Of a DNA stretch of 51,907 bases, positions 22,743 through 45,412 are shown in pieces; the stretch's first letter is position 1, and the number at the start of each line of letters is the position of its first letter. The stretch comes from Gemmatimonadota bacterium (GTDB taxonomy: Bacteria > Gemmatimonadota > Gemmatimonadetes > JACCXV01 > JAHWKZ01). Made by a program: the position numbers and the translations under genes. The notes under the pieces were generated by a model that did not search any database, was not told the origin of the DNA, and saw nothing but the letters and a program-made list of their open reading frames with translations. The stretch lies in contig DASSPT010000042.1 in the NCBI GenBank assembly GCA_035699465.1, forward strand, positions 1 through 51,907, given 5' to 3'.

Positions 22743-23572
22743 GGCCGGCTTTGCGTCGCAGTCTGGCCCGGATCGGGATCTACTCCGTGCTCCTCGGTGG
22801 AGCGTTTCTCACGCTGATGCCGCTCGCGTGGATGGTCTCGGCCTCCTTCATGCCTACCGGACAGGCCAACACCTTCCCGCCTTCCTTCCTGCCGACCAAT
22901 CCCACGCTCCAGCACTATCGCGAGTTGTTCGTTCGTCTCGACGTGGGGCGCTACTTCCTGAACAGCGCCATCCTCGCCGGCGCGGTGACGGGGATCTCGC
23001 TCCTATTCAATTCGATGGCGGGATACGCCTTCGCGAAGCTCCGGTTCCGCGGTCGCGACTCGCTCTTCCGGGTCCTCCTCGGCGGGCTCGTGATCCCGGT
23101 CCAGGTCGCGATGTTGCCGTTGTTCCTGCTGCTCAAGGAGCTGGGATTGGTGAACACCTACGGCGGTGTCGTCGTGCCGGCGGCAGCCGGGATCTTCGGC
23201 ATCTTCCTCGTCAGGCAATACGCGCTCGGCATCCCGGACGATCTTCTCGACGCAGCGCGGATCGACGGCGCGAGCGAGTTCCGCATCTACCGGTCGATCG
23301 TCCTGCCGCTCTGCCGGCCGATCCTGACCACGCTCGGGATCTTCACGTTCCTCGGCGTGTGGAACGACTTCATGTGGCCGCTGATCGTCCTCACCGATGC
23401 CGACATGTACACCCTGCCCGTCGGGCTCGCGAACCTCGTCGGCGAGCACGTCCAGGACACCGAGCTCATGATGGCAGGCTCGGTCCTGACGGTACTCCCG
23501 GTGCTGGCGCTGTTCATCGCCCTCCAGCGCTATTACATCCAGGGGATCATGATGGGAAGCGTGAAGGGGTGA
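22739..23572 (+). CDS. ABC sugar transporter permease (MalG/UgpE-like)
   Basis: The GTG start overlaps the previous stop (GTGA). EAA loop DAARIDGASEFRIYRSIVLP. Confidence 0.8.
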   Translation: MRPALRRSLARIGIYSVLLGGAFLTLMPLAWMVSASFMPTGQANTFPPSFLPTNPTLQHYRELFVRLDVGRYFLNSAILAGAVTGISLLFNSMAGYAFAKLRFRGRDSLFRVLLGGLVIPVQVAMLPLFLLLKELGLVNTYGGVVVPAAAGIFGIFLVRQYALGIPDDLLDAARIDGASEFRIYRSIVLPLCRPILTTLGIFTFLGVWNDFMWPLIVLTDADMYTLPVGLANLVGEHVQDTELMMAGSVLTVLPVLALFIALQRYYIQGIMMGSVKG

Positions 23573-26500: not shown

Positions 26501-26739
26501 GCCTCCTCACACGCTGGGGCAGGTTGGACTTCGAGATCGCGGCGGCGGGCGATTCGGCGCGCGTGCGCCTCGAGGGCGATCTCGAGATTCCCCCCGGAGG
26601 GCTGGTGGTCCTGTCGCCGCTCGAAGCGCCGGTGACCGGGGCGAGGATCTACGGACGGCCGCTCCAGGTGGGCGACTCGGGCGAGGTGATCGTGCGCAGC
26701 CTTCCGGCGGCGATCGTTTTTCTGCATCGGAGGCAGTGA
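23569..26739 (+). CDS. 1056-aa secreted multidomain protein: CBM-like beta-sandwich + F5/8 type C (discoidin) + six-hairpin (alpha/alpha)6 GH15-like domain
   Basis: The GTG start overlaps the previous stop (GTGA) and the N-terminus is signal-like. The discoidin-like block is VVDGDSSSAWRS...QWLALDF...YAVETSDDGIRW. The C-terminal half has YDRSWIRDGA and W/Y/F-rich helical repeats typical of glucoamylase-like barrels. Domain calls were made by eye. Confidence 0.6.
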   Translation: MRRAAQVAVVSTVGLLALPHHSIAVQGHALDGFEDLAAWQAAPSDGVSLEIEPDEGFRGRAMRLEFDFHAGGGYAVARRPLALELPDNYALTFWIRGVALPNNLEIKLVDPSGENVWWVNRRDFVFPGEWTLVTLKKRHIAFAWGPIGGGEIRQVGAIEFAVTAGSGGSGSVWIDELAIEARPTVEPYGGTPIASASSTEAGTEAARVVDGDSSSAWRSDASGRQWLALDFQALREYGGLVIDWEPGAHASDYAVETSDDGIRWEIARRVTAGDGGRDWLYLPESESRALRLALESGPARRYGVRELGIRPLEFSTSMNDFFRAIAAESPRGVYPRPFLDELVYWTVVGGSGDEAEALLAEDGRLEIHPGGFSIEPFVSVGDRLLTWADGEHRQTLLERSLPIPTVTRAHGDLVLAVTAVAAGDSGASVLHVRYRVHNKSETAARAGLFLAIRPFQVNPPTQFLAVPGGVARVREISRTGNGVLVDGHALLVRPEPVAFGAATFDQGDVVERLLRGSPPSAERVDDPFEHASAMLTWELEIAPGDSAEVDLVAPFHPPSIAPGPGKASDFPSFDVALAETAARWRERLGRVSIELPGEAARLVDVLRSNVAFILINRDGPAIQPGSRAYDRSWIRDGALTSAALLRMGHAGVVRDFIEWYSGFQYPSGKIPCCVDHRGADPVPEHDSHGEFVYLVAEYTRFTGDTVLARAMWPHVAGAVGYVDSIRQTRLGPEYQVGEKRLFRGILPESISHEGYSARPVHSYWDDFFALRGLEDAVELAETLGETEEAARFAAIRDAFRTDFHASIRAAIQHHGIDYVPGSADLGDFDATSTTIGVAPGGQLERLPRRELLRTFERYLAEHERRLQEAGWEAYTPYELRVVGTLVRLGWKEQAHELLPFFFGHLRPTAWNAWAEVVGREARSPRFIGDLPHTWVGSDYIRSLLDLFVYDRERDQALVVGAGIPADWARADGGVRARGLLTRWGRLDFEIAAAGDSARVRLEGDLEIPPGGLVVLSPLEAPVTGARIYGRPLQVGDSGEVIVRSLPAAIVFLHRRQ

Positions 26740-29294: not shown

Positions 29295-32941
<3,647 letters not shown>

Positions 32942-33178
32942 ATCGACGGCACATCCCTTGCACCACTCCCTGGCGAACCCCCCGCGCCGGGAGCGGTGTG
33001 TCCGGGGGATGAAAAAAGGAGCCCGAAGTTGCTAAATTCCACCTTCCCGAAACCGAGATCAGCTCCAACGAGAACGGCTCGAACCGTTCCCCCGGCCGCA
33101 TCCTGGTCCAAGGCCGCGCGCCCGCCGGGGGCAAATTCTCCGCCGCGACGGCGACTCGCCTCCTACGAGGACCTGCGC

Positions 33179-34225
33179 ATGCCCGAGCACGAAGCCCGCT
33201 GGACGAACATGAGCCCCGTCCCATTCCTCATGGCTTCCTGGTTCGCCCGCCTGGTCGCGATCGGCGCCCTGGTGCTGATCATCCTCATGATCCTCCCCTA
33301 CCCGCTGCGGTACGTCGAGAACGCCGACCAGTACGAGTACCTCCAGAAGGCCGTGGATCTCGGGACGCGCGCCCGGGCCCGGCTGGGTGCCAAGGTGCAG
33401 GAATGGGTTCCGACCCACATCGCGGGTGCGGATCGCACGATGTGGATCCTGGTGGGCGGGTTCCTGCTCGTGGAGATCGCCGCGGCGAGGGTCGGCGGGC
33501 TGTTCGGCGCGCGGGCGGACTACCTGAAGCTCAAGCGCAAGGTGGAGAGCTGGCAGCAGGAGATGGGCCTGGCGAAGGACTCCGCGGTGGCGTCGTCGCT
33601 CAACGCCAAGCTCGAAGCCCTGAAGGAGGGCAGCAAAGGCGACCGCGAAGAGCTCTTGCGGATCTTCGCGGAGACCAAGCGCAAACTTTCGGGGATGGGC
33701 CGCGAGCTCGCCTTCCTGTCGATAGACATCGTGGACTCGACCAAGATGAAGATCGGCGAGGACCAGGAGACGATCGAGTACGACTTCAAGCAATACAAGA
33801 CATTCGTCGACGAGATCCTGAAAGCGAACGGGGTCATCAAGGTGGCCTGGACCCCCGACGGAATCATGGCCTGCTTCTCGAACATCGACACGGCCGTGAA
33901 AACCGGGAAAGACGTGATCCGCGGGTTGAAGCAGTTCAATCGAGATGTCAAGCTCATGAAGTCGGATTTCCGCGTGCGGTGCGGGGTCAACTCGGGCTAT
34001 GTCTACATGGACGACGACGTGCCCCTCGAGGACGTCAGCGACCGGGTGATCGACATCGCAGGGCACATGCAGAAGCACGCGGAGCCGATGACCGTGTCGG
34101 TGGCCAAGACCGTCGTGGAGCCGCTGACCGACAGGGAGGGGTTCGAGGAGACGCCCAAGATCGTGGACGGCTATCAGGTGTACGCCTGGAGCGGAGAGGG
34201 CACCGCCCCCCCTGGAGGGAGCTGA
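33179..34225 (+). CDS. membrane-anchored class III nucleotidyl cyclase homology domain protein (2 TM + coiled coil + CHD)
   Basis: Two hydrophobic helices, a coiled-coil linker, then CHD motifs: FLSIDIVDST, WTPDGIMACF and RCGVNSG. ATG 33179 is preceded by GAGGA 7 nt upstream. An in-frame TTG at 33029 with AAGGAG 7 nt upstream is an alternative, but the intervening codons show weak GC3 bias. Confidence 0.7.
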   Translation: MPEHEARWTNMSPVPFLMASWFARLVAIGALVLIILMILPYPLRYVENADQYEYLQKAVDLGTRARARLGAKVQEWVPTHIAGADRTMWILVGGFLLVEIAAARVGGLFGARADYLKLKRKVESWQQEMGLAKDSAVASSLNAKLEALKEGSKGDREELLRIFAETKRKLSGMGRELAFLSIDIVDSTKMKIGEDQETIEYDFKQYKTFVDEILKANGVIKVAWTPDGIMACFSNIDTAVKTGKDVIRGLKQFNRDVKLMKSDFRVRCGVNSGYVYMDDDVPLEDVSDRVIDIAGHMQKHAEPMTVSVAKTVVEPLTDREGFEETPKIVDGYQVYAWSGEGTAPPGGS

Positions 34226-34228
34226 GCC

Positions 34229-35224
34229 ATGCGGGTCCTGATCACGGGCGGGGCGGGGTTCATCGGCTCCCACCTCGCCGAGTTCCATCTCGAGCGCGGA
34301 GACGAGGTCCACTGCGTCGACGACCTGAGCACCGGCACGCTGGAGAACGTCGCGCCGTTCCGGGATAGCACGGATTTCCGCTTCGACCGCGCGGACATCC
34401 TGACATGGGACGGCCTAACAGAGGCGCTGGCGCGGGCCGAGCGCGTGTATCACATGGCAGCCGTCGTCGGGATGTTCCGCGTCCTGACCGAGCCCGCGGC
34501 GGTTCTCGCGACCAACGTCGCCGGAACCGAGCGCGTGCTGCGCTGCGCAGCCGAGGCCGGCTCCCGGCCGCGCGTCCTGGTGGCTTCCAGCTCGGAGGTC
34601 TACGGTCCGGTTGGAACCCATCGGCTGGACGAGACCGACGCTCTCCTGGTCCACTGCGACACCGCCAAGACGCAGTGGAACTACGCGCTCAGCAAGCTGG
34701 CCGGAGAGGCGCTGGGTATCACCTACGCCGGCTCATTCGACCTGCCCGTGACGATCGTGCGGCTGTTCAACACCACTGGTCCGCGGCAGTCCGGGCGCTA
34801 CGGAATGGTCGTTCCGCGCTTCGTGCGTCAGGCGGCTCTCGGCGAGCCGCTCACCGTCTTCGGCGACGGACTCCAGACGCGCTCCTTCTGCCACGTCGGC
34901 GACTCGGTGCGCGCGCTCCATCTGCTCTGCGAGAGCGATGCCGCCGAGGGAGAGATCGTGAACGTCGGCAATGACCGCGCGATCACGGTCCTCGACCTCG
35001 CGAACCTGGTGCGTTCGATGGCCGGCAGCAGCTCGCCGGTGATCTTCGTCCCCGACAGCGAGGCGTACTATCACGGCTTCGTGGGGATCCGGCACCGCAA
35101 GCCCGCCCTCGACAAGCTCAAGCGCCTGGTCGGCTTCGAGCCCGAGCACACGCTCGAAGACACGATCACCGATCTGCTCGCCGCAATACGGCCGACCGCC
35201 GAAGGGGCCAGGGCCACGGGCTGA
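34229..35224 (+). CDS. NAD-dependent nucleotide-sugar epimerase/dehydratase (extended SDR)
   Basis: GGAGFIGSH Rossmann motif and the YxxxK catalytic pair (YALSK). It starts 3 nt after the cyclase stop, with GGAGGGAG upstream. Confidence 0.85.
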   Translation: MRVLITGGAGFIGSHLAEFHLERGDEVHCVDDLSTGTLENVAPFRDSTDFRFDRADILTWDGLTEALARAERVYHMAAVVGMFRVLTEPAAVLATNVAGTERVLRCAAEAGSRPRVLVASSSEVYGPVGTHRLDETDALLVHCDTAKTQWNYALSKLAGEALGITYAGSFDLPVTIVRLFNTTGPRQSGRYGMVVPRFVRQAALGEPLTVFGDGLQTRSFCHVGDSVRALHLLCESDAAEGEIVNVGNDRAITVLDLANLVRSMAGSSSPVIFVPDSEAYYHGFVGIRHRKPALDKLKRLVGFEPEHTLEDTITDLLAAIRPTAEGARATG

Positions 35225-36609
35225 TGGCGGTATATCCGCTATTCGTAATCAGCCCCAATACGATCGTCAGCCTCGTAGGTTACGTTCGCGGTCCCGACAA
35301 GACGATTCCCGTGCCCACCGAGGACTATCGGCAGGCGAGGGTCGACGTGGTCATCCCCTGCCTGAACGAGGAGCGGAACATCACGCTCGCGCTCGCCTCG
35401 GTCGCGCGTCAGACGATGCAGCCACGGCGGATCATCCTGGTGGACGACGGGAGTCTGGATCGGACAGTGGAGTTCGCACAGGAGTTCTGTCACGTCAACG
35501 GAATCGACTTGATCGCGATCCGGCGCAAGAAACCGATCGGAAAGACTCCGACCTTGAAGCGACAGGCTCGCGAGTTCGATTCCGACGTCGAGTTCATCTT
35601 GGACGCCGATACCGTGCTGGAGTCGGAGAACTACATCGAGCGGACCGTGGAGGAGCTGTACAAAGCGGTGGGAATCGCGAGCGCGTGCGGGATCATCATG
35701 CCGCAGCGGGCGCGGGACCGCGACCGCTTCGGGAAGACGACGGCCATGCAGCGCTTCCTCGTGAATCACCCCGAGGGCAAGGTCTACGAGGACAGGAGCC
35801 GGATGCGGCGCTTCCTGCGCGGGATCACGAACCTCTACCGGGAGACCCTGTACGTCTATCTCCAGCGTTTCATCTACCGGGGCCAGATGACGTTCTTCGG
35901 ATCGATCTCGGGTCCGATCGGGTGCGCCGTCGCGTACCGCCGGCAGTACGTGGAGAACCTGTTCGACAAGTACGAGCCGATCATGGGCGACGATCTCACG
36001 AATTCCGAGGACGTTTTCCTCGGCCTCGCCTCCCTCAACGAAGGCCACCGGAACATCCAGCTCCAGGACGTCGTAGCCCGCACCGAGGAGCCCGAGTTCC
36101 AGCGCCTCCACAAGCAGCTCTATCTGTGGTCTTCGGCGTTCCTGCAGAGCGCGTTCTATTTCGACCCGCTCATGTGGAGCCCGTTCAAGTCCATGCGCCG
36201 GCTGATCAACGGCGACTGGCGGCGCAACAAGGTGCGCTCCTACGACGAGCGCCGGCGGGTGGCCGAGCCGTACCGTCAGGCGTTCGGCGAAGAAGTGACG
36301 AAGAGCCGGGGCCGGCCCATGGGATGGGTGCTCCTCATGGGCGTTATCGAAAAGCTGTTCTTCCCGGCGGCGATCATCATCATGATGCTCCTCGGATGGT
36401 GGGAAGCGCTGCTGGTGACGATCGTGGCCGAGATCCTGCTGGCGTCCACCCTGCTTGCGATCTCCTCGCCGGGCCAGCGGGTCGAGTACTTCCTCAAGTG
36501 CCTGCTGATCACCCCTATCCGGTACGTGTCGCTGATGTGGGACTTCGTCACCTCCATGCGCTTCGCCGCCGATCTCTGGATCTTCGGCACCCGGAAGTGG
36601 CGCAAGTGA
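35224..36609 (+). CDS. processive family-2 glycosyltransferase (PgaC/cellulose-synthase-like polysaccharide synthase)
   Basis: The ATG overlaps the epimerase stop (TGATG). Motifs: VVIPCLNEE, DDGS, DAD, SED and a QxxRW-like QLYLW, followed by C-terminal TM helices. Confidence 0.8.
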   Translation: MAVYPLFVISPNTIVSLVGYVRGPDKTIPVPTEDYRQARVDVVIPCLNEERNITLALASVARQTMQPRRIILVDDGSLDRTVEFAQEFCHVNGIDLIAIRRKKPIGKTPTLKRQAREFDSDVEFILDADTVLESENYIERTVEELYKAVGIASACGIIMPQRARDRDRFGKTTAMQRFLVNHPEGKVYEDRSRMRRFLRGITNLYRETLYVYLQRFIYRGQMTFFGSISGPIGCAVAYRRQYVENLFDKYEPIMGDDLTNSEDVFLGLASLNEGHRNIQLQDVVARTEEPEFQRLHKQLYLWSSAFLQSAFYFDPLMWSPFKSMRRLINGDWRRNKVRSYDERRRVAEPYRQAFGEEVTKSRGRPMGWVLLMGVIEKLFFPAAIIIMMLLGWWEALLVTIVAEILLASTLLAISSPGQRVEYFLKCLLITPIRYVSLMWDFVTSMRFAADLWIFGTRKWRK

Positions 36610-38318
36610 AGGCCTTCGTGCTCGTCCTCTCGTTCGCGCTCGTGAGCCCGGCGGGCGTGGCGCTCGCCCAGGAGCCGGCCGTGCCGGCCGCCGGTATGGC
36701 CGCGGAGGCGGCGGGGGACCTGGACGCCGCGATCGCCGTCTACGAAGAGGCCGCGCGCGAGGGCGGCCGCGCCGACCTCTGGGTCCGGATCTCCCGCATC
36801 GAGGCCACGCGCGACAACCCGCGAGCGGCGCTGGATGCGATCGAGCGCGCAGTGGAGCTCGAGCCCGGCGACGTGGAGCACCTCCGCGCGCGGGCGGAGC
36901 TCGCCTCGTGGGCCGGCGACTACGAGCGCGCGGCCGACAGTCATCGGCGGATCGGGGAGCTGACCGGAGATCCGTCCGCCGAACTGGGCCTGGCGCGGAT
37001 CGCCGCCTGGCAGGGGAAGACCGCAGTCTCGATACGGCATTATCGGGAGTACCTGAGGAGGCAGCCGGCCGATTCCGTCGCGACGATCGAGCTGGCGCGG
37101 CAGGAGACCTGGCGCGGGAACGCACGCGCGGCGCTGAGGGTTCTCGATGGATACCGGGCGCGGTTCGGCGAGACCGTCGACTACCGGATCGAGCGCGGTC
37201 GCGCGCTCGTGACCGGGAATCGGCCGCGCGCGGCGATCGAGATCCTGGAGCCGCTCGTAACGGAGCGCCCCGGTGACTACGAGGCGCGACTGGTCCTGAC
37301 GCTCGCGCTGTCCGACGCGGGGCGCCGTCGGGACGCCGTCCACTCCGCGGATGAGCTCCTGCGAATCGATGCGGCGAATCCGCGGACAGCGGAGGTGCGG
37401 GCCTACGTCACGGCGCCGATCCGTTCCTTCGTCCGGCCGCGGTACGAGTACTACGACGACTCCGACGAGGTGCGCCACGACCTGTACGGATTCGAGGTCG
37501 GCGTGGAGCTCTCGCCGGACTCGAAACTGGTCGGTCAGGGCAGCGATACCCGGGTGCGGTCGGAGCCAGGGTCGGGCCTGGCGCCGCTCTCGGGCGATGC
37601 GACCGTTCACGAGCGGGCCGCGGACGCTGGGATCGTCTACGGACTCGGCGGTTACGGAGAGGTCGAGGCGCGCGTGGGAGGCGCGTGGATCGACGACGGC
37701 GGACCGGAGCTCTTCACGTGGCTCGCCGCGCTGCGCCTGGCGGCCTCCGACGCGGTGGGGATCGCGCTATCCAGCGGACGCGACTTCTTCGACGTCTCCG
37801 CGCGCGCGCTCGACCTCGGCATCGAGCGCACGGCCGGCCGCGCCCAGCTCCGCTGGTCGCCCGCGATCGGCTGGACGGTCGACGCCGCCGGCTCGCGGGA
37901 GTCGTACAGCGACGACAACGGTCGCTGGGAGGCCCGGCTGGCGGTGAGCGACGGCGTCCTCCGGCGGCAGCTCGTCAACGTCGACCTGGGCGTGGCGAGC
38001 CGATGGCTGTGGTTCGACGAGAATACCGACAGCGGCTACTACGACCCGGCGCGCTACGAGCAGCACCTGGGGGTCGTGTCCACGTACTGGAAGCTGGGCG
38101 ATCAGTCCGGGCTGTCCGCCCGCGGGGCGATCGGGGCTTTCCGCGACGACGAGATCGAGGACTTCAAGCGCAGCGCGGAGCTCGCCGCCGAGGCGACGTT
38201 CGGCATCACGACCGACTGGTCGCTGGTGGCGCGCGCTGCCTACCTCGACAACGTGCGCTCGGTTACGGGGGCGTTCAGCGCCACCGGGGCGGGCTTGTAC
38301 CTCACTCGCCGGTTCTGA
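36606..38318 (+). CDS. outer-membrane TPR + beta-barrel polysaccharide export protein (PgaA/BcsC/PelB-like)
   Basis: The GTG start overlaps the GT2 stop (GTGA). Signal peptide present. The N-terminal half has TPR-like A/L/R-rich repeats. The C-terminal half has alternating beta-strand patterns and ends ...GLYLTRRF. Confidence 0.65.
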   Translation: MKAFVLVLSFALVSPAGVALAQEPAVPAAGMAAEAAGDLDAAIAVYEEAAREGGRADLWVRISRIEATRDNPRAALDAIERAVELEPGDVEHLRARAELASWAGDYERAADSHRRIGELTGDPSAELGLARIAAWQGKTAVSIRHYREYLRRQPADSVATIELARQETWRGNARAALRVLDGYRARFGETVDYRIERGRALVTGNRPRAAIEILEPLVTERPGDYEARLVLTLALSDAGRRRDAVHSADELLRIDAANPRTAEVRAYVTAPIRSFVRPRYEYYDDSDEVRHDLYGFEVGVELSPDSKLVGQGSDTRVRSEPGSGLAPLSGDATVHERAADAGIVYGLGGYGEVEARVGGAWIDDGGPELFTWLAALRLAASDAVGIALSSGRDFFDVSARALDLGIERTAGRAQLRWSPAIGWTVDAAGSRESYSDDNGRWEARLAVSDGVLRRQLVNVDLGVASRWLWFDENTDSGYYDPARYEQHLGVVSTYWKLGDQSGLSARGAIGAFRDDEIEDFKRSAELAAEATFGITTDWSLVARAAYLDNVRSVTGAFSATGAGLYLTRRF

Positions 38319-38346: not shown

Positions 38347-38982
38347 TCAGAGTACGCCGCTCAGGTAGGCGATCCCCATCGCGATCAGGATCGCCGCGCT
38401 GATCCGCGGCAAAGCGTGGTGCCAGCGTTCCACGCGCTCGCCGAGCCTTCCGAGTGCCGCGATGGAGAGCAGCGTCAGCCCGATGATCGCCGCTGCGACC
38501 GTGAGCGCGTACGCCCCCATGACGCCCCAGCAGCTGGCTCGTCCCGCACATAGAGCGACGATCGCGAACTCCTCCTCGTGCGCGAAGCCCAGCACGAAGG
38601 CAAAGGCCGCGATCCCCCAAAGGCCATCACGGCCCTTTGCATCGCGCTGCCCGTGGCCATCGGAATGGGAGTGCGAATGGCCACCGCGCCGCCACTGCAC
38701 GACCCCCATGACGATCAGGACGGCGCCGGCGATCGGACCGACCCAGGGTGTGTCCGTGAGGTCCACCCAGCGGTCGAGCAGCGCGAAGAGGGCGACTACA
38801 GCGAAGGAGGAGACGAGGTGCGCCCCCCCTATGAGGAGCCCCGCCAGCGTTCCCTCGAACCAGGGACGTCGCCGACCCAGTGCATACGCCGCCGCTACGG
38901 GCCAACCGTGGCCGGGCTCCGTTCCATGCAGCGCGCCGATCGTCACGGCCGTGACGTAGGCGGCCTCCGCTCCCTCGATCAT
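38347..38982 (-). CDS. NicO/RcnA-like nickel/cobalt efflux permease
   Basis: HG(T)EPGHG signature (ALHGTEPGHGW), a His-rich loop GGHSHSHSDGHG, and about 6 TM helices. GGAGGGGG SD. Confidence 0.7.
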   Translation of the reverse strand: MIEGAEAAYVTAVTIGALHGTEPGHGWPVAAAYALGRRRPWFEGTLAGLLIGGAHLVSSFAVVALFALLDRWVDLTDTPWVGPIAGAVLIVMGVVQWRRGGHSHSHSDGHGQRDAKGRDGLWGIAAFAFVLGFAHEEEFAIVALCAGRASCWGVMGAYALTVAAAIIGLTLLSIAALGRLGERVERWHHALPRISAAILIAMGIAYLSGVL

Positions 38983-39006
38983 GGCCGCGGCCCCCTCCTG
39001 GCAGGC

Positions 39007-41406
39007 TCAATCCCGGTCGGTCGTAGCCGCCGGATCGGTGGGGCCGCCGAGGTGTCGGGCGAAGAAATCGGTCAGGGCGGAGAAGAGGGCGATGCGGGCG
39101 GGCGGGTCGCCGATCGCGTGGCCGCGGCCCGGGAACACGTGGACCTCGGGCGCGCGGCCCGCGGCGATGAGCGCATCCACCAGGCGTTCGCTGTGCACGG
39201 GGTGGACGTTGTCGTCGGTCGTGCCCCAGGCGAGGAACAGCGGGTCCCGAACGGCCCCGACCACCGGAAGCACGGACGTCTCCTCGTACCCCTCTTCGTT
39301 CTCCGACGGAAGCTCCATGTAGCGCTCGGTGTAGGCGGTGTCGTAGTCGCGCCAGTCGCTGACCGGCGCGACGGCGGCCGCAGCCGCCCACGTCTCCGGC
39401 TCCTGGACGAGCGCGCGGGCGGCCATGAAGCCGCCGTACGACCAGCCCCAGATCCCGGTGCGGGTCGAGTCGGCGGCGGGTTCGTTCCGCCACAGCGCGC
39501 GCACGCACGCGGCCTGGTCCTCGCTCTCGAGGATCCCGAGCCGCTCGTGCACGAGCTCCACCCATGCCTTGCCGCGCGCCCCGGTCCCGCGCCCGTCGCA
39601 CGACCACACGAGGAAGCCGCGCTGCACCATGAGCTGGTGCCACAGGCCGCGGCCGCGCGACAGCCAGTCGTCGACGACCGTTTGCGATCCGGGCCCGCCG
39701 TAGGTGAAGGCGATCACGGGATAACGGCGCTCCGGGTCGAAGTCCCGGGGGCGGTAGAGCATCGCGGGTAGCGAGTCCTCGCGCATCCCGCCGTCGTCGT
39801 CGATCGGGCGCACCCACAGGAACTCGGGCCGCACCAGACCGTAGACCGCGAGCCGCCGGGGGTCGTTCTCTTCGATCCACGCGAGTCGCTCGCCGGTGTC
39901 CGCGTCGCGCGTGGAGACGGAAGGCGGACGCGTGGCCGTGGACCAGGTGTCCACGTAGCGATCGCCCTCGGGCGCGAAGGATACCTGGTGCCAGCCGGGC
40001 TCGCGGCTGACGCGCTGAAGAGGCGGGGTCCCGGTCTGCGCCTGTGCGCCCGAAGCACCGCCCTCCGCCCGCCCGCGCGCGCCCGAGCCGTCGAGACGCG
40101 CCCGGTACAGGTGCCGCTCGAACGGTCCCGAAACGTGCCCGGTGAAGTAGAGCCAGCCGGCGTCGGAATCCACGTGGGCGATCGACGCCACCGACCAGTC
40201 TCCGGCGGTGACCGGATGCGCGAGCCGGCCACCCGCGTCGTAACGGTAGACGTGCTCGTGTCCGGAGCGCTCGCTGACCCACAGGAAGCCGCCGTCGGGA
40301 AGCCACAGGGGGTCGTCGCCGATGCTCACCCATTCGTCGTCGCGCTCGGCGAAGAGCGTGCGCGTCACCCCGGTCACGGCGTCCGCATCGAGAACCCGGA
40401 GCTCGTTCTGGCTCCGGGGCAGGACCTGGGCGACCAGGCTGCCTCCGTCGGGCCGCCAGGCGACTCGCGCCAGATACCAGTCGGGACCCGTGGGGATGTC
40501 GATGCGGACGGCGGGAGCCGCCGAGTCGGATGGGGTCAGGGAATCCACCCGCGCCACCCACAGGTTCACCGTCGCATTGGGGTCCCCCGGTCGAGGGTAG
40601 CGCTGGCGGGTGAGACCGCCGTAGTCGTCGCGATAGTCGGCGAGCGCGAAGACCGGGACGTCGGACTCGTCGACCTCGGTGAACGCGATCCGGCTGCCGT
40701 CCGGGGACCACCAGTGGCCGCGGCGCCGCCCCAGCTCTTCCTGCGCGATGAACTCCGCGACGCCGTACGACACGGTGTCGCTCGCCCCGGCCGTCAGACG
40801 GCGCGTCGCCCGCGTTCGAACGTCGAGGAGCCACAGATCTCCGTCTCGCACGAACGCGATCCGCGGTCCGTCGGGCGAATAGCGTGGGTCGAACTCGGGG
40901 GCCGGAGTGTCGGTCAGGCGGCGGGTCGTGCCCGCCGTCGCGTCGTGCTCGTAGAGGTCGCCCGAGACCGGAACGAGGATGCGGCCGCCGTCGGGGGACC
41001 ATTGATAGGATGTGATGCCCCGGGCCGAGAGGCGGAGGCGCTCCCGCATCGCCTCCTCGGCTTCGCCGAAGGTCTGGCGCTCGCCCCCCAGCAGCTCCTC
41101 GATCCCGAGCAGGCGCCGGCGCTCGCCGGAGGCCGGATCGGCCAGCCAGAGGGCCAGCACCTCGTCCCCCGTCACGCTGTCGCGCGAGGCGGGCGCCAGG
41201 AAGGCGACGGCGCCGCCGTCGGGCCGCCAGGTCACCTCGCGGAGCAGCTCGCCGTCCGGGCCAGGAGGAGCGAAGATCCCCCTCGCGGTGAGCGATTCGA
41301 CCGGCGCCTGCGCTCCCGCGCGAGGCGGCGGGCGGTCGTCACGATCGCATGCGGCCGCTCCGAGCGCTGCGGCGAGACATAGAGATAGGAGGCGCCGGCA
41401 GCTCAT
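39007..41406 (-). CDS. dipeptidyl-peptidase IV family serine peptidase (S9B) lipoprotein
   Basis: DPP-IV N-terminal beta-propeller region plus an alpha/beta-hydrolase domain with GWSYGG. The start is taken at ATG 41406 (MSCRRLLSLCLAAALGAAAC lipobox); the track ORF extends to 41538. Confidence 0.85.
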   Translation of the reverse strand: MSCRRLLSLCLAAALGAAACDRDDRPPPRAGAQAPVESLTARGIFAPPGPDGELLREVTWRPDGGAVAFLAPASRDSVTGDEVLALWLADPASGERRRLLGIEELLGGERQTFGEAEEAMRERLRLSARGITSYQWSPDGGRILVPVSGDLYEHDATAGTTRRLTDTPAPEFDPRYSPDGPRIAFVRDGDLWLLDVRTRATRRLTAGASDTVSYGVAEFIAQEELGRRRGHWWSPDGSRIAFTEVDESDVPVFALADYRDDYGGLTRQRYPRPGDPNATVNLWVARVDSLTPSDSAAPAVRIDIPTGPDWYLARVAWRPDGGSLVAQVLPRSQNELRVLDADAVTGVTRTLFAERDDEWVSIGDDPLWLPDGGFLWVSERSGHEHVYRYDAGGRLAHPVTAGDWSVASIAHVDSDAGWLYFTGHVSGPFERHLYRARLDGSGARGRAEGGASGAQAQTGTPPLQRVSREPGWHQVSFAPEGDRYVDTWSTATRPPSVSTRDADTGERLAWIEENDPRRLAVYGLVRPEFLWVRPIDDDGGMREDSLPAMLYRPRDFDPERRYPVIAFTYGGPGSQTVVDDWLSRGRGLWHQLMVQRGFLVWSCDGRGTGARGKAWVELVHERLGILESEDQAACVRALWRNEPAADSTRTGIWGWSYGGFMAARALVQEPETWAAAAAVAPVSDWRDYDTAYTERYMELPSENEEGYEETSVLPVVGAVRDPLFLAWGTTDDNVHPVHSERLVDALIAAGRAPEVHVFPGRGHAIGDPPARIALFSALTDFFARHLGGPTDPAATTDRD

Positions 41407-41515
41407 CGGGGGGAACGCTAACGCGCGTCCGGGGCCGGCAGCAATCGCAGTCATGCCCGCGCGCGGACGCGGAGCCCGCGGTACACTTCCAGCGACCTCC
41501 GAAGGAGTCGCGCCG

Positions 41516-43573
41516 GTGCACACCCACCACGAGCACATGGAACCAGACGCGGAGGAATCCGCCTCGCGAGCTGCGCATGAGGCGCACGCCGGTCATGACG
41601 CGCACGCCGGGCACGACGCGCATGCCGGACACAGCGTGGCGATGTTCCGGCGGAAGTTCTGGGTCTCCCTCGCGTTGACGATCCCCACCGTCGTGTGGGG
41701 ACACATGCTGGCCCCCTTGCTGGGCATCCATGCCCCCGCGTTCCCGGGCTCCGCGTGGATCGCTCCGGTCTTCGGGACGGCGGTCTTCCTCTACGGCGGC
41801 GGCGTGTTCCTCGAGGGTGCCTGGCGGGAGTGGAAGCGCCGGCTTCCCGGCATGATGACGCTGATCTCGCTCGCGATCGGGGTCGCCTTCGTGTTCAGCC
41901 TGGCGGTCACCCTCGGCTATCCGGGGATGCCTCTCTGGGAGGAGCTGGCCACCCTCGTGACGATCATGCTCCTCGGCCACTGGATCGAGATGAAGTCGAT
42001 CGCGCACGCCCGAGGGGCGCTCGGGGAGCTGGCGAAGCTCCTCCCCGACAAAGCCGTTCGAATATCGGGCGACAGCACCGAGGAGGTGCCGGTCGAGGCG
42101 CTCCGCGGGGGGGATCTCGTCCTCGTCCGACCGGGATCCTCGATTCCCGCCGACGGTCTCGTACGCGAGGGGGCGAGCGACGTGAACGAGGCCATGATCA
42201 CGGGCGAGTCCCGTCCCGTGGAGAAGAGCGAAGGGGAGGCGGTCATCGCCGGAACGATCAACGGCTCGGGCTCGCTCCGGGTCGAGGTCACGAAGACCGG
42301 CGAGCAGACCGCGCTGGCGGGCATCATGCGGCTCGTCGGGGAGGCCCAGAGCTCCCGCAGCCATGCCCAGGACCTCGCCGACCGGGCGGCCCTCTGGCTG
42401 ACGATCGTCGCGCTCGCCGCGGGGGTGCTGACGCTCGTGGCCTGGCTCGCCATCGGCTCGGAGACCGCCTTCGCGGTCGAGCGCCTGGTCAGCGTGCTCG
42501 TCGTCGCGTGCCCGCACGCCCTCGGCCTCGCGATCCCGCTCGTCATCGCGATCTCGACCACGCTCGCCGCCAAGCGCGGGCTCCTCGTGCGGGACCGCCG
42601 CGGGCTCGAGCTGGCGCGCGAGCTGGACATGGTCGTCTTCGACAAGACGGGGACGCTCACGCGGGGCGAGTTCCGGGTGGTGGAAATCGCGGTTGCCGGA
42701 GTCGGCGAGGACGAAGCCCTGGCGCTCGCCGCCGCGGTCGAGCGGGACTCCGAGCACACGATCGCTCGCGGAATCGTGCGGAGCGCGGACGAGCGCGGGC
42801 TCGAGGTCCCGCGGGCGACGGGGTTCCTGGCGATCCCCGGCAAGGGCGTGCGGGCGCGCGTGGGGACGCGCGAGCTCCTGGTCGGGGGCCCGGGCCTGCT
42901 GGCAGCGCACGGCGTGATGCTGACACCCGATCTGGCCGCCGCCGCCGACGGGTTTGCGTCCCGAGGCCACACCGTCGTCTTCCTCCTCGAGGGGAACCGT
43001 CCGCTCGCGGCGCTCGCGGTTGCCGACGAGATCCGGCCGGAGTCGCACGAGGCGGTGGCCCGGCTGCACGCGCAGGGGGTCGACGTGGCGATGCTGACGG
43101 GAGATTCGCGGACGGTGGCCGAATCGGTGGGCAAGCAGCTCGGAATCGACGTCGTCTTCGCCGAGGTGTCCCCCGGGGAGAAGGTCGAGCGGGTCCGGGA
43201 GCTCAAGGCCTTCGGCGGCCGCATCGCGATGGTCGGAGACGGGGTGAACGACGCTGCCGCGCTGCTCACCGCGGATATCGGGATCGCGATCGGCGCGGGC
43301 ACGGGGGTCGCGGTCGAGGCCGGCGACATCGTCCTCGTCCGAAGCGACCCCCGGGACGTGGGGCGGGCGATCGATCTGTCGAAGGCCAGCTATCGCAAGA
43401 TGGTGCAGAACCTCGTGTGGGCGGCAGGCTACAACGTCGTCGCGATCCCTCTCGCGGCCGGCGTTCTGGCCAATCGGGGAATCCTGCTACAGCCGGCCGT
43501 GGCCGCGATCCTGATGTCGGCGAGCACGGTGATCGTAGCCCTCAACGCGCAGCTCCTGCGAAGGCTGGAATAG
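41516..43573 (+). CDS. copB: P1B-type heavy-metal ATPase, CopB-like (CPH motif, His-rich N-terminus)
   Basis: GAAGGAG lies 8 nt upstream of GTG 41516 (alternative ATG 41537). His-rich N-terminus VHTHHEH...HEAHAGHDAHAGHDAHAGH. TGES, the transmembrane CPH motif (VVACPHALGLAIP), DKTGTLT and GDGVNDAAAL are present. There is no CxxC HMA domain. Confidence 0.85.
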   Translation: MHTHHEHMEPDAEESASRAAHEAHAGHDAHAGHDAHAGHSVAMFRRKFWVSLALTIPTVVWGHMLAPLLGIHAPAFPGSAWIAPVFGTAVFLYGGGVFLEGAWREWKRRLPGMMTLISLAIGVAFVFSLAVTLGYPGMPLWEELATLVTIMLLGHWIEMKSIAHARGALGELAKLLPDKAVRISGDSTEEVPVEALRGGDLVLVRPGSSIPADGLVREGASDVNEAMITGESRPVEKSEGEAVIAGTINGSGSLRVEVTKTGEQTALAGIMRLVGEAQSSRSHAQDLADRAALWLTIVALAAGVLTLVAWLAIGSETAFAVERLVSVLVVACPHALGLAIPLVIAISTTLAAKRGLLVRDRRGLELARELDMVVFDKTGTLTRGEFRVVEIAVAGVGEDEALALAAAVERDSEHTIARGIVRSADERGLEVPRATGFLAIPGKGVRARVGTRELLVGGPGLLAAHGVMLTPDLAAAADGFASRGHTVVFLLEGNRPLAALAVADEIRPESHEAVARLHAQGVDVAMLTGDSRTVAESVGKQLGIDVVFAEVSPGEKVERVRELKAFGGRIAMVGDGVNDAAALLTADIGIAIGAGTGVAVEAGDIVLVRSDPRDVGRAIDLSKASYRKMVQNLVWAAGYNVVAIPLAAGVLANRGILLQPAVAAILMSASTVIVALNAQLLRRLE
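41582..41635 (+). repeat. three imperfect tandem 18-nt repeats encoding (AHAGHD)x3
   Basis: The units are gcgcacgccggtcatgac / gcgcacgccgggcacgac / gcgcatgccggacacagc. They are in frame within the copB N-terminus. Confidence 0.85.
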
Positions 43574-43655
43574 GCGTTCCGGTCACGATGGGCGAATTCC
43601 CCCACACGCGATCGTGGGATTCCACCGACAGATCGGCGGGTTGGAGAGGACTAGG

Positions 43656-43666
43656 ATACCGGGTAT
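43656..43666. promoter_or_regulatory. candidate operator ATACC-G-GGTAT overlapping a candidate -10 (TATGCT) upstream of the small ORF and cusCBA
   Basis: The palindrome shares its outer half-sites with the CsoR-type site at 51361-51377. It has the same position relative to a -10-like hexamer. TTGGAG lies 17 nt upstream. Confidence 0.35.
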
Positions 43667-43685
43667 GCTTGGAGTCACGCGAGCG

Positions 43686-44009
43686 ATGAGGGTCCTGGTC
43701 GCGGTCGCGGTCCTCGGGATCGGGCTACTCCCCTGCCTGGTATGCGCTCCCGAGTCCGGGCGGCCGGCGATCCGCGCGGAAACCCCGTGTCACGGAACCA
43801 CGCCTCGAGTCGAGTCGGTATGCGCGGATGACCTCGGCGTCCGAATCGCGGTCGCCCCCATCCTTTCGCTCGCAATCGCTCCCCCTCCGCCATCCGTTCC
43901 CGAGCTCGTCGCGGGCTCGTTGCGGACCCTCGCTCGACCCAGGAGCGAGCCGATCTCTCCGGGGGACGGCCCTCCCCTCTGGCTCCGCCACGCCTCCCTG
44001 CTGGTCTAG
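43686..44009 (+). CDS. hypothetical small membrane/secreted protein (107 aa) preceding cusCBA
   Basis: ATG 43686, an N-terminal hydrophobic helix with LPCLVC, a PCHG motif, high GC3, and a Pro-rich C-terminal half. No family assigned. Confidence 0.45.
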   Translation: MRVLVAVAVLGIGLLPCLVCAPESGRPAIRAETPCHGTTPRVESVCADDLGVRIAVAPILSLAIAPPPPSVPELVAGSLRTLARPRSEPISPGDGPPLWLRHASLLV

Positions 44010-44092
44010 AAGCTCCTCCTTCTGAATGCGTCGGCAGGGGGCCGGATTTTCCGGCCTCGCTCTCGCTCGTTCCATCGGAACGGAGGAACACC

Positions 44093-45412
44093 GTGGGTTC
44101 TCGAATCCTACTCGTCGCCGCGGCGTCGATCGCCTTGACGGCGGCATTCAGCCGACCGATTCCCGTCCGCGCGCAGGAGGGCGCGGGCTCCGCAGGCGAG
44201 CTCCGTCTGGAAGGGGTCTACGCGCTCGCGGCCGAGCGGAATCCGCGGATCGCCGCCGCGACGGCCGTGGCCGATGCCTCTGCGACCATGGTCTCCTCCG
44301 CCGGCCTGCCGCCCGACCCCGTCTTCCAGATCGGGGCCATGAACCTGCGACTGCCGGAGTTCGAGGCGAACATGGAGGCGTCGATGGCGCCATCGCTTCA
44401 GCTCATGCAGATGGTTCCCTTCCCGGGCAAGCTGGGTCTCTCGGAGCGGATCGCCCGAGGAACGAGCGAGATGGCGCGTGCGAACGCCGAAGAGACGGCG
44501 TGGATGATCCGGACGGAGGTCGCGATGGCGTTCTACGACCTGTACGCGGCCGACCGCCAGATCGAGGTGATGCGAAGGACTCTCCGGATCCTCGAGGACT
44601 TCGAGCAGGTGGCCCGGGCGATGTACGGCGCCGGCACCGGGCGGCAGAGCGACGTCCTCCGAGCGAACGTCGAGATCGCCCGCATGGAGGCGGAGATCGC
44701 CCGGATGACGGCGATGCGGGAGGTCGCCGCGGCGAAGCTCAACGGGCTGCTCGTCCGCCCCGCCGAGACCCCCGTTCCGTCGCCGGTCCTCCCCGACCTT
44801 CCCGCCGCCATCCCTGCCCGCGACACCCTGCGATCGTGGGCGGACGCGACCCGTCCGATGCTGCTGGAGGCGAGGACCGCTGTCGAGCGCGCCGGGGCGG
44901 CGCGCGATCTGGCGCGCAGAGAGCTCTGGCCAGACCTCGCGCTCGGCGTCCAGTACGGCCAGCGCGACGCGGGCATGGGCCTCGAGCGCATGGGGAGCTT
45001 CATGGTGGGGTTCAGTCTTCCCGTATTTGCGGGAAGCCGTCAGCTACGGATGCGGGACGAGGCGGCGGCGATGGAGCGGATGTCGGTGGCCGACCTGTCG
45101 GAAACGCGAGCCGACATCGACGCGCGGATCGGTGAGCTCCTCGCGGAGCTCGACCGCGCGCGCACGCTGATCGACCTCTACGAAGGCACGATTCTCCCGC
45201 AGGCCGAGGCCAACGTGGAGTCGTCGTATTCCTCCTATCGGGTCGGGAGCGTCGATTTCATGACGCTGGTCGACGCCCGGATGACCGTCAACCGATACGA
45301 GCAGGAGTATCACCAGCTCCTCGCCGACTACGGCATCGGTGTCGCGGAGCTCGAGGCGGTCGTCGGACGGGAGCTGCCGCCCGGTCCGGGGTCGCTCGCG
45401 GAGGTCCGATGA
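44093..45412 (+). CDS. cusC: outer-membrane efflux protein (TolC family, CusC/CzcC-like)
   Basis: GGAGGA SD before GTG 44093 and a signal peptide. The two-repeat OEP architecture is present. It is the first of three efflux genes. Confidence 0.8.
   Translation: MGSRILLVAAASIALTAAFSRPIPVRAQEGAGSAGELRLEGVYALAAERNPRIAAATAVADASATMVSSAGLPPDPVFQIGAMNLRLPEFEANMEASMAPSLQLMQMVPFPGKLGLSERIARGTSEMARANAEETAWMIRTEVAMAFYDLYAADRQIEVMRRTLRILEDFEQVARAMYGAGTGRQSDVLRANVEIARMEAEIARMTAMREVAAAKLNGLLVRPAETPVPSPVLPDLPAAIPARDTLRSWADATRPMLLEARTAVERAGAARDLARRELWPDLALGVQYGQRDAGMGLERMGSFMVGFSLPVFAGSRQLRMRDEAAAMERMSVADLSETRADIDARIGELLAELDRARTLIDLYEGTILPQAEANVESSYSSYRVGSVDFMTLVDARMTVNRYEQEYHQLLADYGIGVAELEAVVGRELPPGPGSLAEVR

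Follow-up and report, generated by a model that had tools for sequence, protein, structure and literature searches.

What signal governs an exopolysaccharide (EPS) operon that encodes a class III cyclase-homology (CHD) membrane protein and no recognizable c-di-GMP component? The question is raised by positions 33179-38318 of a 51,907-nucleotide stretch of DNA (here, the window) from a soil bacterium of the phylum Gemmatimonadota, where four tightly packed genes lie on the same (+) strand. The features discussed below are the following.

31226..32941, + strand: 571-aa secreted protein with an N-terminal hydrophobic segment (hydropathy), a candidate fifth component
32942..33178, + strand: upstream intergenic region of 237 nt, the presumed promoter and 5' UTR of gene 1
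33179..34225, + strand: gene 1, 348-aa membrane class III cyclase-homology (CHD) protein (Pfam Guanylate_cyc, AF2, Foldseek)
33251..33502, + strand: membrane part of gene 1, with TM1 (residues 25-43), a periplasmic loop of ~46 aa, and TM2 (residues 90-108) (hydropathy)
33698..34198, + strand: CHD of gene 1, residues 174-340 (profile alignment to PDB 3mr7 and Ma1120)
34229..35224, + strand: gene 2, 331-aa extended SDR nucleotide-sugar enzyme (Pfam Epimerase, 1.4e-54; motifs ASSSEVYG and YALSK)
35224..36609, + strand: gene 3, 461-aa GT2 synthase, with a catalytic domain at ~39-302 and a C-terminal TM block at 369-445
36606..38318, + strand: gene 4, 570-aa outer-membrane export porin, with a signal peptide (1-21), 16 TPR-like helices (28-272), and a 16-strand beta-barrel (275-570)

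The best explanation, to which we give a probability of roughly 0.55, is a synthase-dependent EPS operon in which the gene 1 CHD protein serves as a local signal-input partner of the synthase. All four open reading frames have the positions given in an earlier sequence-only reading, and the junction coordinates agree with its account of one short gap and two overlaps. The stop codon of gene 1 (TGA, 34223-34225) lies 3 nt before the ATG of gene 2 at 34229, which is preceded by GGAGGG 10 nt upstream; the end of gene 2 and the start of gene 3 overlap by 1 nt within TGATG (35222-35226), and genes 3 and 4 overlap by 4 nt in GTGA (36606-36609). Translation of gene 1 from ATG 33179 yields 348 aa, in agreement with homologue lengths of 345-348 aa. 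This tight packing suggests that the four genes are co-transcribed as one operon. No Rfam family was found in the 237-nt upstream region at the gathering score, nor a plausible one at E<=5, and no sigma-70-like site was seen in 32942..33178, the sigma-70 consensus saying little for Gemmatimonadota. The 571-aa secreted protein had no match in Pfam, NCBIfam, or PDB searches; its homologue flanks the CHD-SDR-GT2-porin module upstream in two loci (L087 and L088, 49%) and downstream of the porin in a third (L089, 52%), and it may tentatively be considered a fifth component. Composition gives no support to the earlier suggestion of horizontal acquisition, made from a G+C content lower than that of the flanks, since the GC3 of genes 1 and 3 (0.88-0.91) is the same as in the flanks; the G+C drop in these genes is due to codon positions 1 and 2 only.

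Genes 2 to 4 have the makings of a synthase-dependent-type EPS module, as had been proposed. Gene 2 had been taken for an NAD-dependent epimerase/dehydratase; its assignment to the sugar-nucleotide SDRs stood (Pfam Epimerase), but the solved relatives closest to it are UDP-glucuronate decarboxylases (human UXS1 at 3.6e-44), and all NCBIfam equivalog cut-offs were missed. Its ASSSEVYG and YALSK motifs are kept in the module across lineages. Gene 3 matches Glycos_transf_2 (8e-21) and Glyco_tranf_2_3 (1e-12) in Pfam and carries DDGS, LDADT (DxD), NSED, and Q298xxxW302 (QLYLW), motifs that are conserved across a GT2 family with a mean column identity of 69% across phyla; motifs and hydropathy, which gives the GT2 about 2-3 TM helices and a C-terminal TM block, agree with the original description. 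NodC and PgaC gave weak partial matches (NCBIfam), and Arg-rich segments (R344, R351, and a C-terminal RKWRK) are conserved. Of the parts read from the gene 4 sequence, the signal peptide was recovered by hydropathy and the TPR and barrel halves in the AF2 model (pLDDT 92.8, pTM 0.85), which Foldseek matched to BcsC (4e-17), PelB (6e-13), and the PgaA barrel (4y25; target-normalized TM-score 0.85). Pfam reported several TPR families and a weak PgaA_barrel match, the latter also being recorded for gene 4 orthologues; TIGR03939 (PgaA) scored 56.6 bits, below its cut-off, and the protein ends in RRF.

The SDR-GT2-porin genes make up a widespread three-gene module, usually without a CHD gene and apparently uncharacterized, that is found again as a unit, the 4-nt overlap between GT2 and porin genes included, in Uliginosibacterium and other phyla. 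A CHD gene was absent from all four distant modules looked at, and near one of these (L086), PilZ and PAS-GGDEF genes lie at a distance of 3-5 kb. Because most sampled lineages have the core module without it, the CHD protein is an accessory rather than a core part, dispensable for synthesis as such. Synteny of the CHD gene with the GT2/porin pair was nevertheless found repeatedly: the CHD-SDR-GT2-porin arrangement is present in Gemmatimonadota loci L003-L012 (CHD identity, 81-97%) and in L087-L089 (50-53%), and in a Planctomycetia MAG (L011, 64%) the CHD gene adjoins the module in a different gene order.

The CHD-GT2 linkage is phylogenetically robust. In an NJ tree, a rough method, all GT2-linked CHDs formed one clade (clade B, 100/100 bootstraps), with a synthase-type GT2 within 4 kb in 37 of the 40 other loci, whereas none of the 40 loci of sister clade A, which accounts for about half of the CHD family, had a GT2 within 10 kb. 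Since clade A adjoins no GT2, the CHD protein has a function that needs no synthase neighbor. Clade A loci have conserved but probably meaningless neighbors, CysRS for example. Clade B is linked to three unrelated GT2 families in all: the window type, an NfrB-like GT2 that the CHD gene adjoins together with WecB in Bradyrhizobium and other Alphaproteobacteria (23 loci), and a third type with QRKRW in Reyranella (4 loci). The NfrB-like partner scores 553 bits on PRK15489 and lacks MshEN, because its match spans positions 3-474 only, out of 723 in the NfrB model. There are at least four gene orders at GT2-linked loci (CHD-first, CHD-last, divergent, and with an inserted PEP-CTERM gene), in several phyla. 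Separate transcription of the CHD gene is possible in Bradyrhizobium and in L087/L089, given gaps of ~230 nt to WecB and 96-123 nt to the SDR gene, respectively.

Pfam, hydropathy, and AF2 agree that gene 1 encodes two TM segments, a coiled coil, and a CHD, as first described. The Guanylate_cyc match scored 25.9 bits against a gathering score of 21.9; the AF2 model, with helices at 14-38 and 87-129, exceeded a pLDDT of 90 in the CHD part and was closest by Foldseek to Ma1120, CyaC, RhGC, and Rv1900c (target-normalized TM-scores, ~0.8). Homologues (n = 427) reach identities of up to 100% in Gemmatimonadota MAGs, and invariant columns at the loop/TM2 border define a family-wide motif, P78-T79..G83-D85-T87-W89. 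The active-site peculiarities noted earlier proved to be real and family-invariant: both metal Asp positions (D183 and D227) are kept, the transition-state Asn/Arg positions are D292/H296, and the substrate Lys position is A223 (Ala/Ser/Thr across the family by profile alignment). Canonical cyclase activity is doubtful, because Asp/His replaces Asn/Arg and the substrate Lys is missing. The invariance of D183, D227, R267, N271, D292, H296, Q298, and K299 across 68 homologues argues for a functional rather than a decaying site, and frequent fusion of relatives to Ser/Thr kinases marks the subfamily as a signaling domain.

An ordinary adenylyl or guanylyl cyclase, one whose cAMP or cGMP diffuses to act globally by way of a CRP/Clr-type regulator elsewhere while the operon only ensures co-expression, is an unlikely reading of gene 1, if the most serious of the alternatives. 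The class III fold, the two metal Asp residues, and an acidic residue or Gln at the second substrate-specifying position are consistent with it, and so is the solitary position of clade A members, which is what one would expect if they made a diffusible signal. Against it are the invariant Asp/His, the small residue at the substrate Lys position, and module flanks in which no cNMP-binding regulator was found; moreover, a global messenger leaves the repeated recruitment beside three unrelated synthases unexplained. The "cNMP-linked" secretion proposed earlier is likewise unproven: of 6 canonical positions in the CHD active site, 3 deviate from catalytic class III cyclases, and a cNMP receptor is absent. 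No partner GT2 had a cNMP-binding, GAF, or other receptor domain.

Domain searches of the module and its flanks found no PilZ, GGDEF, EAL, MshEN, or cNMP-binding domain and no PgaB or PgaD, and an Rfam search found no riboswitch in or beside the module, in keeping with the original statement that it holds no recognizable c-di-GMP component. PgaCD binds c-di-GMP without any recognizable domain, a precedent for gating of the synthase through an unrecognized site in the GT2 or its oligomer interface, with the CHD protein unrelated or an extra input. The conserved Arg-rich GT2 segments and the PilZ and PAS-GGDEF genes near L086 point the same way. We regard such gating as rather improbable, however: PilZ, MshEN, and GGDEF I-site-like domains were not detected, and NfrB-like partners specifically lost MshEN where the CHD gene is present. 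That the adjacency is functionally meaningless, through chance or vertically inherited gene order, is very unlikely; plain inheritance could account for the order within Gemmatimonadota, and clade A does keep neighbors of that sort, but not for one fully supported clade joined to three unrelated GT2 families in at least four orders and several phyla, with no such link in its sister clade. A Pycsar-type anti-phage pyrimidine cyclase is scarcely credible, since the weak PADLOC PycC match (18.5 bits, E 2.5e-4) reflects no more than general CHD homology, an effector gene is missing, and the gene belongs to an EPS operon that is translationally coupled and conserved in its chromosomal synteny.

In our preferred reading, that of a local signal input to the synthase, the SDR enzyme would tailor a UDP-sugar, possibly to a UDP-glucuronate-derived product as its closest solved relatives suggest; the inner-membrane GT2 would polymerize the sugar and hand the polymer outward; and the TPR/16-strand barrel protein would conduct it across the periplasm and outer membrane. 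To this conserved core gene 1 would have been recruited as signal input, without itself being core. We infer its regulatory role, locality, and chemistry: most likely a dimeric, membrane-anchored, cyclase-fold protein, its short periplasmic loop and TM segment would feed through the coiled coil into a nucleotide- and metal-binding CHD that controls the adjoining synthase locally, taking the role of PilZ, PgaD, MshEN, or a dedicated diguanylate cyclase in Bcs, Pga, and Nfr systems. Because the metal Asp residues are kept but Asp/His stands for Asn/Arg and the substrate Lys is absent, its output may be a nucleotide product of a non-canonical kind or, alternatively, a conformational signal that depends on nucleotide and is relayed by direct contact. 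NfrB in E. coli relatives is c-di-GMP-activated through MshEN, and in pseudomonads a GGDEF gene lies within the operon of the NfrB system (PMC8669469); the CHD gene holds the corresponding place beside MshEN-less NfrB homologues. The CHD protein may thus be a control switch for a surface polysaccharide, used where such systems usually rely on c-di-GMP.

Among known systems, gene 1 resembles class III cyclases with 2-TM/6-TM anchors and coiled-coil transducers (Ma1120, CyaC, Rv1625c) in its fold, dimerization-type coiled coil before the CHD, and two metal Asp residues, but its family is invariantly altered (Asn to Asp, Arg to His, substrate Lys to Ala/Ser/Thr) and has the operonic GT2 link and Ser/Thr kinase fusions. 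Gene 4 finds its best fold match over the full length in BcsC, and the module GT2 shares the D, DxD, and (S/T)ED motifs of BcsA; in contrast, PilZ and BcsB are lacking, the CelA model gives 14.5 bits where its cut-off is 699, and the TM helices are few. PgaABCD of E. coli (poly-beta-1,6-GlcNAc) likewise pairs an inner-membrane GT2 with a TPR and 16-strand barrel porin, on which the module barrel superposes (4y25), and PgaA and PgaC are the best partial NCBIfam matches, though at 57 bits (cut-off 367) and 45 bits (cut-off 422). Unlike Pga, the module has neither the PgaB deacetylase nor PgaD, lacks the Arg of QxxRW, includes an SDR sugar-nucleotide enzyme, and has a CHD partner where Pga has c-di-GMP-binding PgaCD. 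The GT2 encoded by gene 3 is no homologue of NfrB, MshEN and a GGDEF partner are lacking, and the signaling partner has a class III cyclase fold; yet the NfrBA-YbcH/NGR glycan system of E. coli with DgcJ (PMC8669469) has the same combination of a GT2, a dedicated nucleotide-sugar enzyme (there WecB), a TPR/barrel porin, and a membrane signaling enzyme encoded or acting locally, and it is beside WecB and an NfrB homologue that the gene 1 family is found in Bradyrhizobium.

The linkage between genes for a membrane protein with a class III cyclase-homology domain (CHD) and genes for synthase-type GT2 proteins is robust. In the window, the CHD gene (gene 1) stands ahead of an SDR gene (gene 2), a GT2 gene (gene 3), and a porin gene (gene 4), and the sequence-only reading had made synteny of the CHD gene with the GT2/porin pair its main test. 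That synteny recurs beyond the window in several phyla, as judged from 80 genome loci with relatives and further metagenome loci, with partners sought by tblastn, ORF clustering, and phmmer. The order CHD-SDR-GT2-porin is kept in Gemmatimonadota (L003-L012; CHD identity, 81-97%) and in two deeper lineages (L087/L088 and L089; CHD identity, 50-53%), and a Planctomycetia MAG (L011; CHD identity, 64%) has the order GT2-porin-CHD. Twenty-three alphaproteobacterial loci, among them those of Bradyrhizobium japonicum, B. lablabi, B. erythrophlei, and Xanthobacteraceae, read CHD-WecB-GT2 or WecB-GT2-CHD, and the partner GT2 is an NfrB homologue (PRK15489, 553 bits versus a cut-off of 537). A third GT2 type (472 aa, QRKRW), divergent from the CHD gene, is found at four Reyranella loci (L042, L048, L054, and L081).

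These partner loci have further features of their own. In Bradyrhizobium and relatives (L049-L082; for example, L076 14386-15885), the NfrB-like GT2 is ~500 aa long, lacks MshEN, and adjoins the WecB and CHD genes; a divergent Bac_transf (priming sugar transferase) gene and an H-NS-like gene lie upstream, and some loci carry a PEP-CTERM protein gene between the CHD and WecB genes. The Reyranella GT2 is accompanied by a GH10 glycoside hydrolase and an SDR. A xylan-like polymer was considered as the product of this set and put aside; the SDR motif is GalE-like (ASSMSVYG) and not UXS-like (SSEVYG).

A neighbor-joining tree split the GT2-linked CHDs (window type, Alphaproteobacteria, and Reyranella) from the GT2-less group, and the GT2-linked clade was recovered in 100 of 100 bootstraps. 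With the window left out, a synthase-type GT2 lies within 4 kb at 37 of the 40 loci in this clade. Of the three exceptions, two (L004 and L072) are on contigs that break off within the partner operon; the third, from Rhodopseudomonas pseudopalustris (L024), has no synthase-type GT2 within 4 kb. The association extends to synthases of three unrelated families, to several gene orders, and to several phyla, which makes chance or purely vertical inheritance an unlikely explanation. CHDs with a window-type GT2 were monophyletic in just 2 of 100 bootstraps, which suggests either partner exchange or poor resolution within the clade.

The GT2-less sister clade comprises ~40 CHD loci from Ignavibacteria, Bacteroidota, Nitrospirota, and deltaproteobacteria, with no such GT2 within 10 kb. 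At 29 loci in the range L013-L053 (Ignavibacteria and Bacteroidota-type MAGs; for example, L025 219-1172), a Hist_deacetyl gene (8e-100) lies ~100 nt 5' of the CHD gene on the same strand and the CHD gene is followed by a convergent cysteinyl-tRNA synthetase gene, with no GT2 nearby. No neighbor is common to the remaining loci of this clade. The other neighbors of these stand-alone genes (ankyrin, MoCF, glycine cleavage, TPS, PAS kinase, and M24 peptidase) show no common theme. An exhaustive profile search (E<=1e-30) gave 199 CHD family clusters at 50% identity. Seven of the 10 long members examined carry a fused Hanks-type Ser/Thr kinase domain, placed either N- or C-terminal of the CHD (P0300, P0404, P0399, P0409, P0426, P0384, and P0386); the fused CHDs retain WTPDG, and most retain RCGxNxG too. 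The kinase fusions indicate that the CHD works in signaling contexts.

Gene 1 encodes a 348-aa protein whose two transmembrane helices (residues 25-43 and 90-108) enclose a short periplasmic loop and lead into a long helix/coiled coil and the CHD. Its Pfam Guanylate_cyc (PF00211) score of 25.9 bits is just over the gathering score of 21.9, and the top 50 Foldseek matches are all class III cyclases (target-normalized TM-scores up to 0.82), with Ma1120, CyaC, RhGC, and Rv1900c among them at ~0.8. The predicted fold is unambiguously that of a class III cyclase. Competent members of this class carry a transition-state N-x-x-x-R in helix alpha4, and the residue four positions ahead of the second metal Asp specifies the substrate, as Lys for ATP or Glu for GTP. 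The corresponding positions were read from a profile alignment to PDB 3mr7 and Ma1120 and from a 68-sequence alignment.

Active-site positions of class III cyclases and their equivalents in the CHD family.
First metal Asp: D183; invariant (68 sequences)
Second metal Asp: D227; invariant (68 sequences)
Arg of the R-x-G-x-N-x-G strand: R267; invariant
Substrate Lys position: A223 (Ala/Ser/Thr); near-invariant Lys K221 two residues upstream
Second specificity position: Asp/Glu/Gln; variable
Transition-state Asn: D292; invariant
Transition-state Arg: H296; invariant

The CHD family departs at three of the six residues by which a catalytically competent class III cyclase is defined. The block S-D-R-V-I-D-I-A-G-H-M-Q-K is nearly unchanged across phyla, so the site is conserved and re-tooled, not decaying.

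The CHD protein would be a membrane-bound, dimeric sensor that binds nucleotide and metal through its cytosolic domain, and it probably controls the adjacent synthase. Control may be local, exerted by direct contact or by a product that is used locally; this is favored because one CHD clade serves three synthases that share no extra domain and because no receptor gene co-travels. No recognizable c-di-GMP or cNMP receptor and no c-di-GMP riboswitch was found in the module or its flanks, and the flanking genes encode no cNMP-binding, PilZ, GGDEF, or EAL domains. The most far-reaching reading, to which we assign a probability of about 0.35, is that a conserved, re-tooled membrane cyclase-fold family, with Asp/His in place of Asn/Arg, acts as a second, c-di-GMP-independent gatekeeper of synthase-dependent secretion, through a noncanonical product or nucleotide-dependent contact. 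Alternatively, the CHD might make cAMP or cGMP canonically, which its active-site residues render rather doubtful. The sequence-only reading had proposed a cNMP-linked or cyclase-fold-gated system: the link between a cyclase-fold gene and a synthase module that lacks c-di-GMP parts stands and reaches far past the window, but the "cNMP-gated" part found no support. An obligatory-subunit role is disfavored, since the SDR-GT2-porin core usually occurs without a CHD gene and the GT2-less CHD proteins stand alone. A Pycsar-type defense cyclase can be dismissed, with a PycC score of only 18.5 bits and no effector present.

The core genes themselves point to a putative polymer-secreting unit. Gene 2 is an extended SDR (Pfam Epimerase, 1.4e-54) that reaches no NCBIfam equivalog cut-off, and its motifs, ASSSEVYG and W-N-Y-A-L-S-K, are kept in the module across lineages. 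It had been called a sugar epimerase/dehydratase. Its nearest solved relatives are human UDP-glucuronate decarboxylases (3.6e-44), and in Uliginosibacterium a UDP-glucose/GDP-mannose-type dehydrogenase gene lies directly 5' of the SDR gene, so an epimerase role is only one possibility among others. On these likenesses, the product of the core SDR may be a UDP-GlcA-derived sugar.

Gene 3 is a GT2 (Glycos_transf_2, 8e-21) with weak, partial similarity to NodC and PgaC. Its family, with >1,500 matches, is unusually well conserved, with ~60% identity among Gemmatimonadota, Acidobacteriota, Poribacteria, Desulfobulbaceae, and Gamma- and Betaproteobacteria, and the family alignment has a mean column identity of 69%, with DDGS, LDxDT, and NSED invariant. 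The QxxRW position reads Q-x-Y/R-L/M-W in the entire family; since Leu or Met replaces Arg throughout, this is a family trait and not decay. Also invariant in the alignment are the N-terminal peptide MAxxPxF..SPN...GPD and the C-terminal WRK (gene 3, window 35224-36609). Hydropathy gives the C-terminal block only ~2-3 transmembrane helices, few for a translocating synthase. The marks of a processive inner-membrane GT2 are D, DxD, (S/T)ED, and QxxRW motifs plus transmembrane helices; gene 3 has the first three motifs, lacks the Arg of the fourth, and is only putatively processive. Gene 4 had been read as a TPR domain joined to a beta-barrel, and its AF2 model (pLDDT, 92.8; pTM, 0.85) agrees, with a signal helix, 16 TPR-like helices, and 16 beta-strands. 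The top fold matches are BcsC (4e-17) and PelB (6e-13), and superposition on the PgaA barrel gave a target-normalized TM-score of 0.85 (rmsd, 2.8 Å).

SDR-GT2-porin is a widespread three-gene synthase-type module. Three lineages have it without a CHD gene (Uliginosibacterium aquaticum, one with a 9.3-Mb genome, and one with a split porin), and the 4-nt GT2/porin overlap is kept in all three; a Poribacteria MAG has GT2-porin by itself, again with a 4-nt overlap. In Uliginosibacterium (L083 5722-11185), the core module with its preceding dehydrogenase gene adjoins nif genes. In the split-porin lineage (L086 2891-11199), separate genes encode the TPR (303 aa) and barrel (302 aa) parts, and genes for PilZ and PAS-GGDEF proteins are found 3-5 kb upstream. 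No paper describing the SDR-GT2-porin core or its CHD link was found in the searchable literature, and a search for CHD- or cAMP-linked synthase operons gave nothing relevant.

Within the window (G+C, ~69%), the module and its surroundings are arranged as follows.

22828-26739, plus strand: 1303-aa protein with an F5/8 type C (galactose-binding-like) domain and a weak alpha-L-rhamnosidase six-hairpin match
29295-31121, minus strand: thiC, with a TPP riboswitch; the upstream flank also holds ABC ATPase and UDG genes and is unrelated to the module
31113-31224, minus strand: TPP riboswitch directly 5' of thiC, 56.8 bits versus a gathering score of 54.3
31226-32941, plus strand: 571-aa secreted protein
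33179-38318, plus strand: the four ORFs of the module, on one strand
38347-49943: RcnA-like 211-aa membrane protein, P-type ATPase, and OEP; the downstream flank also holds a DPP-IV peptidase and is unrelated to the module

The closest homologues of all four module proteins come from Gemmatimonadota MAGs. The tight junctions proposed from the sequence were confirmed: the TGA of gene 1 (34223-25) is followed by gcc and the ATG of gene 2 (34229), with GGAGGG upstream; genes 2 and 3 meet at TGATG (35222-26); and the GT2 and porin genes overlap by 4 nt at GTGA (36606-09). We infer that genes 1 to 4 are co-transcribed. The promoter and terminator scan, which is uninformative for this phylum, gave nothing beyond shuffle expectation, and no riboswitch or known RNA was found 5' of gene 1, the thiC TPP riboswitch being the sole Rfam match in the window. 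Horizontal acquisition, suggested earlier from a slight dip in G+C, is not borne out. GC3 is 0.88-0.91 in the four genes versus 0.82-0.92 for the flanks. Genes 1 and 3, which encode the module's two most conserved proteins, have a lower G+C at codon positions 1 and 2 only; since GC3 of these genes equals that of the flanks, composition shows no sign of recent transfer.

The 571-aa protein has no Pfam, NCBIfam, or PDB-profile match; its conserved motifs include GRFCYxHE, WWxADPLWxVPGNERRxEH, and WGxDLxELLxRYGxP. Homologues lie upstream of the module in L087/L088 (L087 1870-3450) and 3' of the porin gene in L089 (6243-7148), and none was found at the CHD-less loci. The protein may, tentatively, be a fifth, periplasmic component of the CHD-containing module. 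Its ORF is divergent from thiC and abuts the riboswitch. The 1303-aa protein is a candidate large secreted glycosidase unrelated to the module. In L087 (9052-12941), an ArsR-type HTH gene, an OEP gene, and a CzcB-like gene lie just 3' of the module; the presence of efflux genes downstream of the module both there and in the window is probably coincidence.

If the gatekeeper reading is true, an alternative input module exists, the c-di-GMP dependence of synthase-dependent EPS secretion is not universal, and the cyclase fold gains a new output. The CHD-synthase association also occurs in B. japonicum, B. lablabi, B. erythrophlei, Reyranella massiliensis, and R. soli; because these carriers are cultivable and genetically tractable, the hypothesis is open to direct test. 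The SDR-GT2-porin core is of interest as well, being widespread and highly conserved, with a GT2 identity of ~60% across phyla.

To our knowledge, the well-studied synthase-dependent EPS systems (cellulose, PNAG, alginate, Pel, and NGR) are all activated posttranslationally by c-di-GMP. Pfam and NCBIfam searches found no c-di-GMP receptor (PilZ, PgaD, PelD, Alg44, or MshEN) in any of the four proteins or in the flanks, although a cryptic site may exist. Compared with PgaABCD, the window module scores 45.4 bits for PgaC (cut-off, 422) and 56.6 for PgaA (cut-off, 366.7) and lacks both the PgaB deacetylase and a small 2-TM PgaD-like gene; compared with Bcs, it scores 14.5 bits for CelA (cut-off, 699) and has no PilZ domain. 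The window GT2 matches neither NfrB model (PRK11234 or PRK15489) and does not retrieve NfrB-like GT2s by phmmer, whereas the CHD family's partner GT2s in Bradyrhizobium pass the NfrB model (553 versus 537 bits). With equivalog scores far under the cut-offs and the defining accessory genes missing, the window system falls outside the Pga, Bcs, and Nfr families. In E. coli, c-di-GMP activates NfrB via its MshEN domain and is supplied locally by DgcJ; in other bacteria, nfrB is often linked to wecB-like and GGDEF genes, and MshEN is kept in 1,705 of 1,841 NfrB homologues (PMC8669469). In Bradyrhizobium, the arrangement resembles this logic minus the c-di-GMP parts, with a CHD gene where the cyclase gene would be. 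The window system belongs to the general kind of synthase-dependent EPS secretion, as a variant built around a previously undescribed CHD subfamily.
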